Virus record (IMG/VR): IMGVR_UViG_2563366946_000004 | Direction: 5' to 3' (one strand) | Length of the DNA: 6,770 nt | Source: a virus | Lineage: Duplodnaviria > Heunggongvirae > Uroviricota > Caudoviricetes | Part shown: positions 1-6,770 of the stretch, piece by piece | How the letters are laid out: every line of letters begins with the position of its first letter | Numbering within the stretch: position 1 is the first letter of the stretch | The notes under the pieces: model-generated | What the model was told of the DNA's origin: nothing | Seen by the model: only the letters and a program-made list of their open reading frames with translations | The model's database searches: none | Position numbers and translations under genes: made by a program

Positions 1-2875
1 ACCATCACGTCGGCAAACATCGACCGTCTGCGCTTTACCTTCGGTGTGCAGGCACTGGTGGAAACCACCTCAAAGGGGGACAGGAATCCATCGGAAGTCC
101 GCCTGCTGGTTCAGATACAACGTAACGGTGGCTGGGTGACGGAAAAAGACATCACCATTAAGGGTAAAACCACCTCGCAGTATCTGGCCTCAGTGGTGGT
201 GGATAACCTGCCGCCGCGCCCGTTTAATATCCGGATGCGCAGGATGACGCCGGACAGCACCACAGACCAGCTGCAGAACAAAACGCTCTGGTCGTCATAC
301 ACCGAAATCATCGATGTGAAACAGTGCTACCCGAACACGGCACTGGTCGGCGTGCAGGTGGACTCGGAGCAGTTCGGCAGCCAGCAGGTGAGCCGTAATT
401 ATCATCTGCGCGGGCGTATTCTGCAGGTGCCGTCGAACTATAACCCGCAGACGCGGCAATACAGCGGTATCTGGGACGGAACGTTTAAGCCAGCATACAG
501 CAACAACATGGCCTGGTGTCTGTGGGATATGCTGACCCATCCGCGCTACGGCATGGGGAAGCGTCTCGGTGCGGCGGATGTGGACAAATGGGCGCTGTAT
601 GTCATCGGCCAGAATTGCGACCAGTCGGTGCCGGATGGCTTTGGTGGCACGGAGCCGCGCATCACCTGTAATGCCTACCTGACCACACAGCGCAAGGCGT
701 GGGATGTTCTCAGTGATTTCTGCTCGGCGATGCGCTGTATGCCGGTATGGAACGGGCAGACGCTGACGTTCGTGCAGGACCGACCGTCGGATAAGGTGTG
801 GACCTATAACCGCAGTAATGTGGTGATGCCGGATGATGGTGCGCCGTTCCGCTACAGCTTCAGCGCCCTGAAAGACCGCCATAATGCTGTTGAGGTGAAC
901 TGGATTGACCCGGATAACGGCTGGGAGACGGCGACAGAGCTTGTGGAGGACACGCAGGCCATTGCCCGTTACGGTCGTAACGTCACGAAGATGGATGCCT
1001 TTGGCTGTACCAGCCGGGGGCAGGCACACCGCGCCGGGCTGTGGCTGATTAAAACGGAGCTGCTGGAAACGCAGACCGTGGACTTCAGCGTGGGTGCAGA
1101 AGGGCTTCGCCATGTACCGGGCGATGTCATTGAAATCTGTGATGATGACTATGCGGGGATCAGCATCGGCGGGCGCGTGCTGGCGGTGAACAACCAGACG
1201 CGGACACTGACGCTCGACCGTGAAATCACGCTGCCATCCTCCGGCACCACGCTGATAAGCCTGGCTGACGGACAGGGGAATCCGGTCAGCGTGGAGGTCC
1301 AGTCCGTCACCGACGGCGTGAAGGTAAAAGTGAGCCGTGTTCCTGACGGCGTTGCAGAATACAGCGTGTGGGGGCTGAAGCTGCCGACGCTGCGCCAGCG
1401 CCTGTTCCGCTGTGTGAGTATCCGTGAGAACGATGACGGCACGTATGCCATCACTGCCGTGCAGCATGTACCGGAAAAAGAGGCCATCGTGGATAACGGG
1501 GCGCACTTTGACGGCGACCAGAGCGGCACGGTGAATGGTGTCACGCCGCCAGCGGTGCAGCACCTGACTGCCGAAGTCACCGCAGACAGCGGGGAATATC
1601 AGGTGCTGGCGCGCTGGGACACGCCGAAGGTGGTGAAGGGGGTGAGCTTTATGCTTCGCCTGACCGTGGCAGCGGATGACGGCAGTGAGCGGCTGGTCAG
1701 CACGGCCCGGACGACGGAAACCACATACCGCTTCAGGCAACTGGCGCTGGGGAACTACAGGCTGACAGTCCGGGCGGTAAATGCGTGGGGGCAGCAGGGC
1801 GATCCGGCATCGGTATCGTTCCGGATTGCCGCACCGGCAGCGCCGTCGCAGATTGAGCTGACACCGGGGTATTTTCAGATAACCGCCACGCCGCATCTTG
1901 CGGTTTATGATCCGACGGTACAGTTTGAGTTCTGGTTCTCGGAAAAGCGGATTGCGGATATCAGGCAGGTTGAAACCACAGCACGCTATCTTGGCACGGC
2001 GCTGTACTGGATAGCCGCCAGTATCAATATCAAACCGGGCCATGATTATTATTTTTACATCCGCAGTGTGAACACCGTTGGCAAATCGGCATTTGTGGAG
2101 GCTGTTGGCCAGCCGAGTGATGATGCATCCGGCTATCTGAATTTTTTCAAAGGAGAGATAGGGAAAACCCATCTGGCTCAGGAGTTGTGGACGCAGATTG
2201 ATAACGGTCAGCTTGCGCCTGACCTGGCTGAAATCAGGACGTCCATTACGGGTGTCAGCAATGAAATCACGCAGACCGTCAATAAGAAACTGGAAGACCA
2301 GAGTGCAGCGATCCAGCAGATACAGAAGGTTCAGGTTGATACAAATAATAACCTGAACAGCATGTGGGCTGTGAAGCTGCAGCAGATGCAGGACGGACGC
2401 CTTTATATCGCGGGTATTGGTGCCGGTGTTGAGAATACTCCTGACGGTATGCAGAGTCAGGTGCTGCTGGCGGCGGACAGGATTGCGATGATTAATCCTG
2501 CGAATGGCAACACAAAGCCGATGTTTGTTGGGCAGGGCGATCAGATATTCATGAACGAAGTGTTCCTGAAATATCTGACGGCTCCCACCATTACCAGCGG
2601 TGGCAATCCCCCAACGTTTTCACTGACACCTGATGGTCGACTTTCTGCGAAAAATGCGGATATCAGCGGTAACGTGAACGCGAACTCCGGGACGCTCAAC
2701 AACGTCACGATTAATCAGAACTGTCGGATTCTGGGAAAACTGTCAGCTAACCAGATTGAAGGTGATATTGTCAAAACGGTGGGAAAAGCCTTTCCGAGAA
2801 ATGGCAGTTATGCCAGCGGTACAATAACGGTCACTGTGTACGATGACCAGGCTTTTGACCGTCAGATAGTAGTCC
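1..2875 (+). pseudogene. J: Lambda-like tail tip / host specificity protein J (central tail fibre), N-terminal and central part; 5' end lies upstream of the window; interrupted by an IS insertion at 2876
   Basis: Frame 1 is open from base 1 with no upstream stop in the window. The translation carries long stretches I recognise from lambda J (e.g. [78 protein letters not shown], fibronectin-III-like segment, [20 protein letters not shown]). J-derived coding ends at 2875 where the IS terminus TGAACC begins. The supplied ORF 46..3036 continues into the IS only as read-through. Confidence 0.9.
2873..2875. repeat. Target-site duplication (TCC), left copy, flanking the IS insertion in J
   Basis: TCC lies immediately outside the IS terminus at 2873-2875 and again at 4186-4188. 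A 3-bp duplication is typical of IS3-family elements. Confidence 0.75.
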
Positions 2876-2900
2876 TGAACCGCCCCGGGTTTCCTGGAGA
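2876..2900. repeat. IS terminal inverted repeat, right end (IRR)
   Basis: TGAACCGCCCCGGGTTTCCTGGAGA matches the reverse complement of 4161..4185 at 23 of 25 positions (AA/TT mismatch at positions 15-16). Confidence 0.8.
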
Positions 2901-2917
2901 GTGTTTTATCTGTGAAC

Positions 2918-3808
2918 TCAGGCTGCCAGATCATCGTTTCCGATGGAAGCATAATAAGCTTTTTCTGCTTCTGCCGGAGGAGTATGGCCCAGCCTTTCCA
3001 GCAATCGTCGATTGTTATACCAGTCCACCCACGTGAGTGTGGCCAGTTCCACTTCTGCACGGTTTTTCCAGCTCTTACGGTGTATTACCTCCGCTTTGTA
3101 AAGGCCATTGATGCTCTCCGCCATCGCGTTGTCATACGAGTCGCCTGTACTTCCTGTTGATGCCAGTAATCCGGCTTCCTTAAGCCGCTGTGTGTAGGCC
3201 AGCGATACATACTGAGAACCTTTATCACTGTGATGGACCGTGCCGGACGGTCGACGGGCCCATAACGCCTGCTCCAGTGCATCCAGCACGAATGTCGTTT
3301 CCATGGACGATGAGACCCGCCACCCCACGATGTATCCGGCAAACACATCAATGATGAACGCCACATAGACGAAGCCCCGCCATGTGCTGACGTAAGTAAA
3401 ATCAGCCACCCACAGCTGGTCAGGTCGTTCTGCCACGAACTGACGGTTTACGCGGTCGCCTGCGGCAACGGCTTTCCGGCTGATGGTCGTACGGACCTTT
3501 TTACCCCGGAGAACACCGGCAAGTCCCATAACCGCCATGAGACGTGCCACAGTGCATCTGGCCACTCTGATACCTTCCCGTAACAACTGACGCCAGACTT
3601 TACGCACACCGTATACCTTGTGATTTTCATCGTATACGCGCTGTATCTCTTTCTTCAGCCAGTCATCGCGCTGCGCACGGGCACTGCGTTTATCCGGATG
3701 ATGTCGCTGTTGCTGACAGTGGTAATACGTTGACGGGGCAATATGCAGTTCGCTGCATAGCGGTCCGACCCCGTACTGCTCACGCAGCTTATCCAGCAGT
3801 GGCATCAT
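2918..3808 (-). CDS. IS3-family transposase OrfB (DDE catalytic domain), normally expressed as an OrfAB fusion by -1 frameshifting
   Basis: Supplied 296-aa minus-strand ORF with DDE-type motifs ([31 protein letters not shown]). It overlaps the orfA stop in the -1 frame. The stop (TGA, complement of 2918-2920) sits just inside the IRR. Confidence 0.9.
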
Positions 3809-3815
3809 TTTTTCC
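3805..3815 (-). other. Programmed -1 ribosomal frameshift site (A6 slippery run) at the orfA/orfB overlap
   Basis: Minus-strand sequence ...CTGGAAAAAATGATGCCA...: orfA ends ...LWKK-TGA, and orfB continues MMPLLDK in the -1 frame. An A AAA AAN heptamer at the orfA/orfB overlap is the canonical IS3-family arrangement (established knowledge). Confidence 0.7.
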
Positions 3816-4131
3816 AGAGGCGGTCGAACTCCGCCTTCGCAAAATAAGCGGAAGCCTGGCGAAGGATATCGTTACTGCGGCGCAGTTCACGATTTTCACG
3901 TTCCAGCTCTTTCAGACGCTGACGTTCAGCGGTGGTGAGCCCTCCATCACCGCCCCCGGTATCCCGCTCATGCTGGCGAACCCAGACACGCAGAGTCTCC
4001 GGCGTACAGCCAATCTTTGGAGCAATGGAACAAATTGTCGCCCATTGTGAGTCATATTCGCTCTGACTTTCCAGAACCATACGAATCGCCCTCTGACGGA
4101 CTTCGGGGGAAAAACGAGTATTTTTAGTCAT
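3805..4131 (-). CDS. IS3-family transposase OrfA (HTH DNA-binding and leucine-zipper region)
   Basis: Supplied 108-aa minus-strand [59 protein letters not shown]...[39 protein letters not shown] is 54 bp inside the IS left end. Confidence 0.9.
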
Positions 4132-4160
4132 CCTGTTTACCTCTTTCTCAGGAAGTTTAG

Positions 4161-4185
4161 TCTCCAGGATTCCCGGGGCGGTTCA
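4161..4185. repeat. IS terminal inverted repeat, left end (IRL) of the minus-orientation copy
   Basis: Reverse complement of 4161..4185 is TGAACCGCCCCGGGAATCCTGGAGA, identical to the start of the second IS copy at 6451. Confidence 0.85.
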
Positions 4186-4188
4186 TCC
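4186..4188. repeat. Target-site duplication (TCC), right copy
   Basis: TCC immediately follows the IS end (GGTTCA at 4180-4185) and matches 2873-2875. Confidence 0.75.
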
Positions 4189-4490
4189 CCCCCGTTCTGT
4201 TTCGTGGGGGTAAGCATGAAAACTTCAACAGCAACAACCAACAGTCATACTGGTATTCAACCTGTAAGCTGCAGGTACTGAAGAACGGACAGGAAATCTT
4301 TCAGCAACCCGCGACGGATGTCAGCAGGGTATTTTCATCAGTCATTGATATGCCTGCCGGACACGGCCATGTCACCCTGACTTTCAATGTTTCTTCATAT
4401 GGTGCTAATAACTGGACGCCAACGACCAGTATCAGCGACCTTCTTGTTGTTGTGATGAAGAAATCTACAGCCGGTATCAGTATCAGTTGA
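4186..4490 (+). pseudogene. J: C-terminal ~100 codons of tail tip protein J, separated from the rest of the gene by the IS
   Basis: The frame starting at 4188 is open to TGA at 4488-4490 and encodes [100 protein letters not shown]. This resembles my recollection of the lambda J C-terminus (...DMPAG.G......[14 protein letters not shown]). With the IS and one TCC removed this frame is contiguous with the upstream J frame (...[15 protein letters not shown]...). Confidence 0.8.
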
Positions 4491-4507: not shown

Positions 4508-4536
4508 CGGGCGCCAGAAATGGCGCCTTTTTTATT
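4508..4536 (+). terminator. Rho-independent terminator between J and stf
   Basis: Perfect 6-bp stem GGCGCC (4510-4515) / GGCGCC (4522-4527) with loop AGAAAT, followed directly by TTTTTT (4528-4533), 18 bp downstream of the J stop codon. Confidence 0.65.
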
Positions 4537-4548
4537 TGTGGAGTGAAT

Positions 4549-6453
4549 ATGGCAGTACAGATTTCAGGCGTGCTGAAAGACGGTGCAGGAAAACCGATAC
4601 AGAACTGCACCATTCAGCTCAAAGCAAAACGTAACAGCACCACGGTTGTGGTGAACACGGTGGCCTCAGAAAATCCGGATGAAGCCGGACGTTACAGCAT
4701 GGATGTCGAGTATGGCCAGTACAGCGTTATCCTGCTGGTTGAAGGTTTTCCGCCTTCACATGCCGGGGCCATCACCGTGTATGAGGATTCTAAGCCGGGG
4801 ACATTGAATGATTTTCTGGGCGCTGCAACAGAAGATGATGTTCGTCCGGAGGCACTGTATCGTTTTGAAAAGATGGTGGAAGAGGTGGCACGCAACGCTG
4901 AAGCCGCCTCTCAGAGCGCAGCGGCAGCAAAGAAATCAGAAACAGCAGCGGCATCGTCCAGGAATGCGGCGAAAACATCAGAGACGAATGCAGGTAACAG
5001 CGCGAAAGCGGCAGCTTCTTCAAAAACAGCCGCACAAAACGCAGCAACAGCGGCAGAACGTTCAGAGACAAATGCCCGTGCGTCAGAAGAAGCCTCCGCA
5101 GACAGTGAAGAGGCTTCCCGCCGTAATGCAGAGTCAGCCGCTGAAAATGCCGGAGTCGCCACCACAAAAGCGCGGGAGGCCGCAGCAGACGCAACAAAGG
5201 CCGGGCAGAAAAAGGATGAGGCTCTGTCGGCAGCGACACGGGCTGAAAAGGCGGCAGACCGCGCAGAAGTCGCAGCGGAAGTGACTGCAGAGCCCTATGC
5301 GAATATAGTGCCGCCGCTGCCTGATGTGTGGATACCGTTTAACGATTCACTGGATATGATTGCGGGTTTTTCTCCGGGCTATAAAAAAATAGCTATTGGT
5401 GACGATGTGGTTCAGGTCGCCAGTGATAAACAGGTTAATTTCAGTCGCGCATCAACGGCAACATATATCAACAAATCTGGCGAACTGAAAACGGCGGAAA
5501 TTAATGAGCCGCGATTTGAGTGTGATGGCCTGCTTATTGAGGGACAAAGAACGAACTACATGCTCAATTCGGAAAGTCCAGCCAGCTGGGGGAAGTCATC
5601 AAACATGGATGTGCCCGAAACCGGGACAGATAGTTTTGGTTTTACTTATGGAAAGTTTGTCTGCAACGATTCTCTGGTTGGGCAAACTTCGGCTATTAAT
5701 ATGGCATCAATTGCTGCAACAAAGTCAGTTGATGTCTCAGGCGATAACAAGTACGTGACAACCTCATGCCGTTTTAAAACAGAACGACAGGTAAGGTTAC
5801 GTATACGGTTTGATAAGTATGATGGTAGTGCAACAACTTTTCTTGGCGATGCGTACATTGATACGCAAACGCTTGAAATTAATATGACAGGTGGGGCTGC
5901 CGGCAGAATTACGGCACGAGTCAGGAAGGATAAGACCACAGGCTGGATTTTTGCAGAGGCAACGATTCAGGCAATTGATGGTGAGTTAAAAATAGGCTCT
6001 CAGATACAGTATTCTCCTGAGCGGGGTGGGGCAACAGTATCTGGTGACTATATTTATCTTGCCACCCCACAAGTAGAGAATGGGCCGTGTGTATCATCAT
6101 TTATTATTTCAGGAGGCAGCGCAACGACAAGAGCCAGTGATTTGGTTAGTATCCCTACCAGAAATAATCTTTATAAGTTACCATTTACTTTTTTACTTGA
6201 GATTCATAAAAACTGGGATATTGCACCAAACGCCGCACCCCGCGTGTGGGATATAGCAGCAGCCAATACCGGGCAATCAGCAATTGCAGCAATCAACAGA
6301 GGTAGTGGTAAGTTATATATGAGTCTGTCAAACCCTTCAGGCTTGTATGTTAATAGCGCAGCGACAGATGTATTTGCAGAGAAAACCACATTTGGATGTA
6401 TTGCAAAAGCTGATGGTCACTTTCATGTGGTGACAAATGGTAAAGCGGTTTGA
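4549..6453 (+). CDS. stf: Side tail fibre protein (Stf-like); lambda-Stf-like N-terminal anchor, Ala/Ser/Glu-rich repeats, distinct C-terminal domain; 3' end abuts the second IS and is probably truncated
   Basis: ATG at 4549 is preceded by GGAG (4540-4543) at 5-nt spacing. The supplied ORF starts at an upstream GTG (4543), but MAVQISGVLKDGAGKPIQNCTIQLKAKRNSTTVVVNTVASENPDEAGRYSMDVEYGQYSVILLVEGFPPSHAG matches the N-terminus of lambda Stf / Rac StfR as I recall them (MAVKISGVLKDGTGKPVQNCTIQLKA...). The stop TGA (6451-6453) is the first three bases of the IS terminus. Confidence 0.85.
   Translation: MAVQISGVLKDGAGKPIQNCTIQLKAKRNSTTVVVNTVASENPDEAGRYSMDVEYGQYSVILLVEGFPPSHAGAITVYEDSKPGTLNDFLGAATEDDVRPEALYRFEKMVEEVARNAEAASQSAAAAKKSETAAASSRNAAKTSETNAGNSAKAAASSKTAAQNAATAAERSETNARASEEASADSEEASRRNAESAAENAGVATTKAREAAADATKAGQKKDEALSAATRAEKAADRAEVAAEVTAEPYANIVPPLPDVWIPFNDSLDMIAGFSPGYKKIAIGDDVVQVASDKQVNFSRASTATYINKSGELKTAEINEPRFECDGLLIEGQRTNYMLNSESPASWGKSSNMDVPETGTDSFGFTYGKFVCNDSLVGQTSAINMASIAATKSVDVSGDNKYVTTSCRFKTERQVRLRIRFDKYDGSATTFLGDAYIDTQTLEINMTGGAAGRITARVRKDKTTGWIFAEATIQAIDGELKIGSQIQYSPERGGATVSGDYIYLATPQVENGPCVSSFIISGGSATTRASDLVSIPTRNNLYKLPFTFLLEIHKNWDIAPNAAPRVWDIAAANTGQSAIAAINRGSGKLYMSLSNPSGLYVNSAATDVFAEKTTFGCIAKADGHFHVVTNGKAV
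4897..5280 (+). repeat. Low-complexity Ala/Ser/Glu/Thr-rich tail-fibre repeat region inside stf
   Basis: The translation shows degenerate recurring units (SETNA..S..AA.., AAKTSETNAGNSAKAAASSKTAAQNAATAAERSETNARASEEASADSEEAS...). The DNA here is GC-rich and open in several frames on both strands, which produces the spurious overlapping ORFs 4808..5284(+), 4790..5239(-) and 4911..5165(-). Confidence 0.7.
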
Positions 6454-6475
6454 ACCGCCCCGGGAATCCTGGAGA
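6451..6475. repeat. IRL of the second IS copy
   Basis: TGAACCGCCCCGGGAATCCTGGAGA, identical to the IRL of the first copy. Confidence 0.85.
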
Positions 6476-6504
6476 CTAAACTTCCTGAGAAAGAGGTAAA
6501 CAGG

Positions 6505-6770
6505 ATGACTAAAAATACTCGTTTTTCCCCCGAAGTCCGTCAGAGGGCGATTCGTATGGTTCTGGAAAGTCAGAGCGAATATGACTCACAATGGGCGACA
6601 ATTTGTTCCATTGCTCCAAAGATTGGCTGTACGCCGGAGACTCTGCGTGTCTGGGTTCGCCAGCATGAGCGGGATACCGGGGGCGGTGATGGAGGGCTCA
6701 CCACCGCTGAACGTCAGCGTCTGAAAGAGCTGGAACGTGAAAATCGTGAACTGCGCCGCAGTAACGATAT
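6505..6770 (+). CDS. IS3-family transposase OrfA of the second IS copy, 3'-partial (window ends)
   Basis: ATG at 6505, 54 bp inside the IS end. Translation [30 protein letters not shown]... is identical to orfA of the first copy over the visible part. Confidence 0.9.
   Translation, partial: MTKNTRFSPEVRQRAIRMVLESQSEYDSQWATICSIAPKIGCTPETLRVWVRQHERDTGGGDGGLTTAERQRLKELERENRELRRSND

Follow-up and report, generated by a model that had tools for sequence, protein, structure and literature searches.

How does a side tail fiber that begins like that of phage lambda come to end in something quite different, what is this distal part, and what might it hold on to? The question is raised by the gene stf in IMG/VR virus record IMGVR_UViG_2563366946_000004, a stretch of 6,770 nucleotides from a tailed virus (Caudoviricetes) that was analyzed at its full length and is referred to here as the window. 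An earlier note, made from the letters of this stretch, had taken the part of the encoded protein (Stf) beyond about residue 245 for an exchanged receptor-binding module. We arrive at a reading that we regard as probable: the gene is a phage 21-like stf whose product leads from an anchor through a shaft and an adaptor into two beta-sandwich domains, these domains would bind surface glycans reversibly, the distal module was acquired by exchange, and the copy in the window is dead through the insertion of an IS629-like insertion sequence (IS).

A phage 21 side tail fiber gene cut by an insertion sequence

The window comprises the tail-end genes of a lambdoid E. coli prophage, namely J, an IS, the 3' end of J, a hairpin, stf and a second IS (Table 1). 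It is most similar to prophages from extraintestinal and avian pathogenic E. coli and to phage 21, which is classified in the genus Jouyvirus, and its relatives. Phage 21 Stf has 686 residues, and the first 634 of these agree without exception with the 634 that the window encodes; at the DNA level, stf shares 99.9% identity with the genes of phage 21 and ev017. The side fibers of ev017, PhiR63_2 and PhiR57_1 are listed together with phage 21 Stf as the closest known ones, and in these phages, too, stf comes after J without an intervening lom gene. The module to which the earlier note had ascribed an unknown specificity is thus, residue for residue, that of phage 21 Stf, and the window gene is not new but represents a fiber allele that is already catalogued and very common. 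Counted at a threshold of at least 95% identity over at least 80% of bases 5550-6450, the allele is present in approximately 577 of 5426 complete E. coli genomes, or about a tenth, and the lysogens carrying it include strains of more than one annotated O type, with O1, O2 and O4 among the matches listed.

The same comparison corrects the length of the protein. The open reading frame (ORF) had been read as a complete protein of 634 residues; an IS629-like element in fact cuts it at codon 635. From position 6451 the sequence runs TGAACCGCCCCGGGAATCCTGGAG..., which is the IS end TGAACCGCCCCGGG, and the first three bases of this element, TGA, serve as the stop codon of the truncated stf. At the same point phage 21 reads on AATGAAGTT..., and its frame adds 52 codons, NEVYCEYNGV...RHLFGHIRNFRIWHKELNDRQLKEVV, to give 686 residues in total. 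Since position 6450 is an IS junction, it would be wrong to treat the 634-residue product as a natural protein. The element itself (copy 2) can be compared over 320 bp with a second copy lying within J (copy 1) and shows no mismatch there; with a coverage of at least 80%, it is matched by 5775 E. coli records as an IS3/IS629 transposase. None of the 5426 complete E. coli genomes contains the stf::IS junction, which is therefore peculiar to this strain or, with lower probability, was created by the assembly at a repeated sequence.

What the insertion removes can be judged from an AlphaFold2 model of P0001, an intact homolog that has the same distal part as the window protein (100% identity) and a shaft that is shorter by 42 residues. 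The alignment behind both the model and the conservation values comprises 73 diverse family members. The mean predicted local distance difference test score (pLDDT) of the model is 84, and it lies above 90 across the whole distal module. In this model, the lost 52 residues hold the strands 607-610 and 623-631 and the helix 637-643, and they include the best-conserved motif of the second sandwich domain (H624, R629 and W631 in P0001 numbering, each at least 90% conserved). As J is split and stf truncated, the prophage would be unable to make functional tails and is considered tail-defective. The window copy as such is therefore of little weight, being presumably an inactivated remnant in a defective prophage; the allele that it represents is what is discussed in the following.

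Anchor, shaft and adaptor

The proximal half of the fiber is of the lambda type, as the earlier note had recognized. The tail-attachment family PF08400 matches residues 1-131 with 230.2 bits against a gathering score of 26.6, lambda orf-401, which is the N-terminal half of lambda Stf, shares 74% identity with residues 1-158, and the modeled N-terminal domain can be superposed on the Ur-lambda Stf collar (9e7m_Ta). The collar domain matches this Ur-lambda collar at 85-90% identity, and the two fibers further share a linker, an Ala/Ser-rich shaft and a presumed accessory role in adsorption. In Ur-lambda, twelve collar domains round the tail tip give rise to four trimeric fibers, each of them containing a flexible linker and a coiled coil, and the proximal coiled coil spans residues 102-393 (PMC12617516).

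The shaft had been described as an Ala/Ser-rich repeat. It is indeed Ala/Ser-rich and aligns at 53% with the lambda Stf shaft, but there is no tandem repeat at the DNA level, and the repetition therefore resides only in residue composition. AlphaFold2 draws the P0001 shaft as a long helix with a pLDDT of 60-79, and by analogy with Ur-lambda it would form a trimeric coiled coil.

Between the shaft and the sandwiches lies a short conserved adaptor, made of PPLPDVWIPFNDSL and a small beta-hairpin region, in which P214, P216, D217, W219 and P221 (P0001 numbering) show a conservation of at least 90% across the 73 members. Its first strand (PLPDVWIPF) may belong structurally to the second sandwich domain, in which case the first one would be an inserted domain.

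Two lectin-type sandwiches at the distal end

Beyond the shaft the likeness to lambda ends, in agreement with the earlier note, and the distal part is not a diverged lambda tip: between residues ~245-634 and lambda orf-314, the gp37-like tip, the best BLASTP match has an E value of 1.1 and covers 27 residues. Lambda Stf carries a gp37-like tip and comes with Tfa, whereas the Stf of the window carries lectin-type sandwiches, and in its relatives a 92-residue protein follows. No family had been named for this part with confidence, yet the first domain (D1) matches a curated family above its cut-off and the second (D2) has a Laminin_G_3-like fold.

D1 is a concanavalin-A-like sandwich in which a variable core is set between two edge motifs, NEPRFE..GLLIEGQRTN and TPQVE..SSFI..TRASD. 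The family NF048003 ("phage head spike fiber domain") scores 55.5 bits with the whole protein, against a curated cut-off of 36, and 57.1 bits with its C-terminal part, where residues 329-529 cover profile positions 1-181 of 182. In a phmmer comparison, D1 (residues 297-543) matches residues 44-285 of Rcc01080, the head spike fiber of the Rhodobacter capsulatus gene transfer agent (RcGTA), with an E value of 6.2e-10. Judged by sequence, D1 is homologous to this protein; the shared part extends over ~245 alignment residues and includes the conserved edge motifs. Rcc01080 differs from Stf in that it is a single chain of 325 residues without a coiled-coil shaft, and in that its N-terminal (I/L)-G repeat peptide sits on a pentameric capsid spike base, not on a tail. 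Experimentally, its residues 2-10 have been resolved and its globular part is without a structure (PMC7296036, PMC10218006).

D2, residues ~545-686 of the intact protein, is likewise concanavalin-A-like and has a jelly-roll beta-sandwich fold. On intact phage 21 Stf, the Laminin_G_3 family PF13385 matches residues 560-681 with an E value of 5e-5 and 23.9 bits, which is below the cut-off of 27.6; 30 of the 73 relatives match at E<=1e-3, the best of them at 1.9e-11. The truncated window protein gave no PF13385 match in the Pfam search, and nothing significant was found for its distal part there. Matches to Phage_sheath_domII and SpnB_Rossmann (E 0.03-0.07) were discarded as noise.

Among the fold matches of the distal module, carbohydrate-binding modules are the closest, and CBM40, pentraxins, LamG domains and the Hc domains of neurotoxins also appear. 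Profile searches of the window protein and of phage 21 Stf detected no beta-helix, Peptidase_S74 or glycoside hydrolase family, and the model contains sandwiches only. That the distal module is an enzyme, such as a glycanase, lyase or esterase acting on O-antigen or capsule, and not a passive lectin, appears improbable to us.

The composition step and repeated exchange of the module

The drop in guanine-plus-cytosine (GC) content that the earlier note had perceived by eye near position 5280 is confirmed by calculation. GC is 0.553 over positions 4549-5280 and 0.444 over positions 5281-6450, and a maximum-likelihood two-segment scan puts the best change-point at 5338, with a likelihood ratio that was reached by none of 500 base shuffles. 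In part, the step reflects the amino acids encoded, since the shaft is full of alanine and hence of GCN codons. Could it be nothing else, that is, could an Ala-rich shaft followed by sandwiches produce it without any exchange at this position? The shaft is the local GC maximum (0.587, with 0.61-0.64 in 150-bp windows at 5074-5298), the anchor reaches only 0.516, and the drop is largest at first codon positions (GC1, 0.639 to 0.490), all of which would agree with such an explanation. We nevertheless hold it to be highly improbable. First, GC at third codon positions (GC3) also drops across the step, from 0.484 to 0.372, and the shift is therefore real. Second, N-termini of at least four unrelated families carry the module. 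Third, sibling Jouyvirus phages are near-identical up to residues ~270-330 and fall to ~30% identity thereafter. Horizontal exchange, in combination with the Ala-rich shaft upstream, would therefore give rise to the step.

The 3' end of J (positions 4186-4490) was also seen to be AT-richer than the J body, with a GC of 0.472 as opposed to 0.566 (GC3 of the body, 0.677); low GC therefore marks both host-range determinants and reaches beyond the stf tip.

The proposal of a horizontally exchanged receptor-binding module is borne out by its distribution. Close homologs fuse it to N-termini of the families PF08400 (lambda type), PF12571 (P2 type), PF03406 and PF18668, and by translated search it is carried by 227 phage records from many unrelated groups, among them lambdoid, Dhillonvirus, Drexlerviridae, T5-like and rV5-like phages; T1-like and P2-like phages also belong to the carriers. 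In these records the carriers are usually annotated as lateral or side tail fibers. An exhaustive profile-free search returned 2584 cluster representatives at E<=1e-3 (clusters at 50% identity), many of which, among those listed, match best at query residues ~10-105. The module family is thus a large one that is present in the lateral fibers of several model coliphage groups. The lateral fibers of Dhillonvirus (KarlBarth gp28), Drexlerviridae, T5-like and rV5-like phages have the same module at 41-59% identity over 80-99% of it, and differ from Stf in their N-terminal attachment parts. Three experimentally characterized fibers that were considered as carriers were ruled out: LtfA/LtfB of DT57C, which have a Peptidase_S74 end, the Stf of Gifsy-1, which is of the lambda type, and the chimeric lambda STF-V10, for which the phiV10 tailspike was used.

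The idea of one mosaic junction at about residue 245 has to be abandoned, as relatives break near 270-335, 545-570 and 660; residue 245 is the boundary between shaft and module, and neither the sole nor the most recent joint. The Stf of Lambda_2E9 is near-identical up to ~270-330, has ~30% identity in the D1 and D2 cores and rises again over the last 26 residues, while in PhiR63_1 D1 is ~93% identical and D2 is different. The D1 and D2 cores therefore swap independently of each other. The two edge motifs of D1, together with RHLFGHIRNFRIWHK, likely act both as recombination sites and as structural framework. Conserved joints round two independently swappable sandwich cores would offer a natural chassis for host-range engineering.

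Two further observations were made among the matches. P0163, a cluster representative of 4244 residues, shows similarity to the module at six separate places and would thus seem to be a giant protein in which the domain is repeated. Three unannotated records (MG065653.1, OR847733.1 and OR844870.1), labeled Campylobacter phage C14 or Listeria phage LM 4-11-1, match the module with identities typical of rV5-like coliphages, and these labels may be wrong or the samples mixed.

A proposed accessory fiber that binds surface glycans

The model that we propose for the intact protein runs as follows. The collar domain (residues 1-91) would dock the chain on the tail tip, and from there the alpha-helical shaft (residues ~102-245), which presumably forms a trimeric coiled coil, would lead via the short adaptor to D1 and D2. 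The variable cores of these two domains would most likely bind a surface polysaccharide (O-antigen, capsule, lipopolysaccharide core or similar) in a reversible manner during primary adsorption, and the virion would thus be concentrated at the cell surface, such that J could reach its outer-membrane receptor sooner. The module is exchanged both whole and domain by domain, probably through recombination in the conserved edge motifs, and it travels with a translationally coupled 92-residue protein and not with a Tfa-type chaperone. In the prophage of the window, the IS629-like insertion after codon 634 has taken away core strands of D2, with an identical copy splitting J.

The earlier note had stated that the receptor is not inferable from the sequence. 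This holds for the specific ligand, but fold and homology do point to a surface glycan, and the domain name thereby provides a testable guess at the ligand class. We favor glycan binding because of the homology of D1 to a capsule-binding fiber, the class of fold and the way in which lateral fibers are established to behave in lambda, T5 and the BASEL siphoviruses. The capsular polysaccharide of Rhodobacter is bound by Rcc01080 (PMC7296036, PMC10218006), and lateral fibers are generally facultative glycan binders (PMC8594841, PMC11990801). For the lateral fibers of the Dhillonvirus, Drexlerviridae, T5-like and rV5-like groups, the BASEL authors describe facultative O-antigen binding, which for the small siphoviruses is likely and not demonstrated (PMC8594841). 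The L-shaped fibers of T5 and DT57C (Ltf, LtfA and LtfB) resemble Stf in their logic, being non-essential, O-antigen-binding and adsorption-speeding, and differ from it in ending in an autocleaving Peptidase_S74 intramolecular chaperone (pfam13884).

Several points weigh against the model as a whole. The literature searched yielded no receptor experiment for phage 21 Stf or any other fiber bearing the module. Rcc01080, the only characterized homolog, is distant (E 6e-10) and solved only at residues 2-10. As lysogens with the allele differ in O type, one narrow O-antigen target is not suggested. As for the gene in the window, its inactivation by the truncation is deduced from conservation, and an assembly join at the repeated IS, although less likely, could explain the stf::IS junction. 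Finally, concanavalin-A-like and LamG folds also bind proteins, and lambda's own (Ur-lambda) Stf targets OmpC (PMC12617516).

These last two facts give rise to the rival view that the module has a protein as its receptor, for instance the porin OmpC, to which lambda Stf binds, with the lectin-like fold being a mere scaffold. Protein binders are present among the LamG and neurotoxin Hc domains that it resembles, and the spread of the allele over lysogens of several O types would find an easy place in this scheme. On balance we think it unlikely, given that the sole characterized homolog binds a capsule polysaccharide, that the closest folds are carbohydrate-binding modules, and that the lateral fiber locus of the module-bearing groups is hypervariable and was tied by the BASEL authors to O-antigen diversity (PMC8594841). 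A sialic-acid ligand was also considered within the glycan-binding model, in view of the CBM40 matches and of the O2:K1 strains among the best matches; it has no support beyond the shared fold, and several O types are represented.

The gene that follows the fiber

The module was expected to come with a particular tfa partner, which the earlier note had proposed to look for. None accompanies it; a 92-residue protein of another kind follows instead. In phage 21, Lambda_2E9, PhiR63_1 and KarlBarth (the sole locus examined among the Dhillonvirus, Drexlerviridae, T5-like and rV5-like groups, where this small gene directly follows the fiber), the next gene encodes an acidic protein of 85-93 residues with the N-terminus MKDLTLKF, and no Tfa-type chaperone gene lies directly downstream in any of the four. 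A homolog of the 92-residue protein of phage 21 is found in 80 of 80 related loci from viral contigs, and in all but one of these (79/80) its start lies at -3 or 0 relative to the stop of stf. The protein is a member of PHROG 1361, a function-unassigned group, and our searches retrieved neither a Pfam family nor a structural neighbor for it. It may be an assembly or accessory factor. In the window, the gene would lie beyond IS copy 2 and thus outside the sequence.

These features permit a bolder extension of the glycan-binding model, which we put forward tentatively and regard as rather doubtful. The trimeric coiled coil would open into three separate two-domain lectin arms, forming a bouquet that resembles collectins and not an intertwined trimeric tip, folding would proceed free of a Tfa-type or intramolecular chaperone, and the 92-residue acidic protein would be a new fiber factor serving in assembly, capping or an accessory task. 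This extension is compatible with the data because the homologous head fiber of the gene transfer agent is single-chain and because the 92-residue protein is without a fold match. If it were true, such bouquets would represent a widespread and experimentally untouched class of phage receptor-binding devices.

Organization of the window and decay of stf in lysogens

The coordinates of the features are collected in Table 1.

Table 1. Features of the window, in order of position, followed by the related loci referred to in the text
Feature	Location	Strand	Remarks
5' part of J (central tail fiber / host specificity)	1..2875	+	runs off the left window end; interrupted at 2875/2876
IS629-like element of the IS3 family, copy 1	2876..4185	-	1310 bp, inside J
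orfB of copy 1	3808..2918	-	ORF of 296 residues
orfA of copy 1	4131..3805	-	ORF of 108 residues
3' remainder of J, receptor-binding C-terminus	4186..4490	+	last 305 bases; stop 4488-4490; GC 0.472
Terminator-like GC-rich hairpin and T-run, between J and stf	4509..4528	+	phage 21 has a terminator annotated there
stf ORF	4549-6450	+	ATG start at 4549
stf residues 1-131, tail-attachment (collar) domain and linker	4549..4941	+	PF08400
stf residues ~132-244, Ala/Ser-rich alpha-helical shaft (predicted)	4942..5280	+	lambda Stf shaft alignment, model
stf residues 245-296, conserved adaptor	5281..5436	+	contains the change-point 5338
D1, residues ~297-543, concanavalin-A-like beta-sandwich	5437..6177	+	homologous to the RcGTA head spike fiber
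First two thirds of D2, residues ~544-634, Laminin_G_3-like sandwich	6178..6450	+	without the last 52 residues
IS629-like element, copy 2	6451..6770	+	first 320 bp, continues past the window; inverted relative to copy 1
Phage 21 side tail fiber	OL657228.1, CPT_21_22, UMO75437.1		coding sequence of 686 residues
Partner gene	L001:7058-7333 (phage 21); L005:5019-5294; L006:5373-5651; L007:4296-4550		

The 5' part of J aligns to J of phage 21 and carries the RefSeq name gpJ. A stop codon in J upstream of base 46, suspected from the list of ORFs, was ruled out, since the frame is open from base 1. Copy 1, which interrupts the gene, has the features of an IS3/IS629 element, namely a length of ~1.3 kb, inverted repeats, a 3-bp duplication and an orfA/orfB pair with a frameshift signal. 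Its terminal inverted repeats, read directly, are TGAACCGCCCCGGG, the target duplication TCC stands at 2873-2875 and 4186-4188, the ALIL frameshift pseudoknot (RF01497) is found by Rfam at 3734-3850 on the minus strand with 120 bits, and in RefSeq the element goes under the name of IS3-like IS629 family transposase. When copy 1 and one copy of the duplication are excised, the C-terminus of J becomes identical to that of phage 21 over the last 120 residues, which were compared. The two IS copies bracket 2265 bp, made up of the J 3' end and the truncated stf, in an arrangement reminiscent of a composite transposon.

In lambda, lom lies between J and stf, while in the window and in phage 21 there is no lom between them. 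In the best-matching prophages and phages, stf is followed by two small genes and then by the sitABCD iron/manganese transporter genes. In phage 21-type phages and prophages these lie on the opposite strand just downstream of the fiber genes (for example L001:7734-11183 and L002:9969-13137), as fitness cargo in the position of the lambda b region.

Decay of stf in lysogens is recurrent. In two of the RefSeq E. coli genomes examined, BEN2908 and HM670, the gene is split near nucleotide 364 (L002:7236-9296 and L003:8549-10609) and is annotated as an N-terminal pseudogene followed by a 574-residue "phage head spike fiber domain-containing protein", a name by which the tail-fiber nature of the product is hidden. 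Another prophage (L036) carries, within the 3' end of its stf and a few codons past the IS site of the window, an insertion of ~2.66 kb (4929-7595); this insertion holds ORFs of 141, 116 and 537 residues, has the end GTAAGCG and is possibly an IS66-type element.

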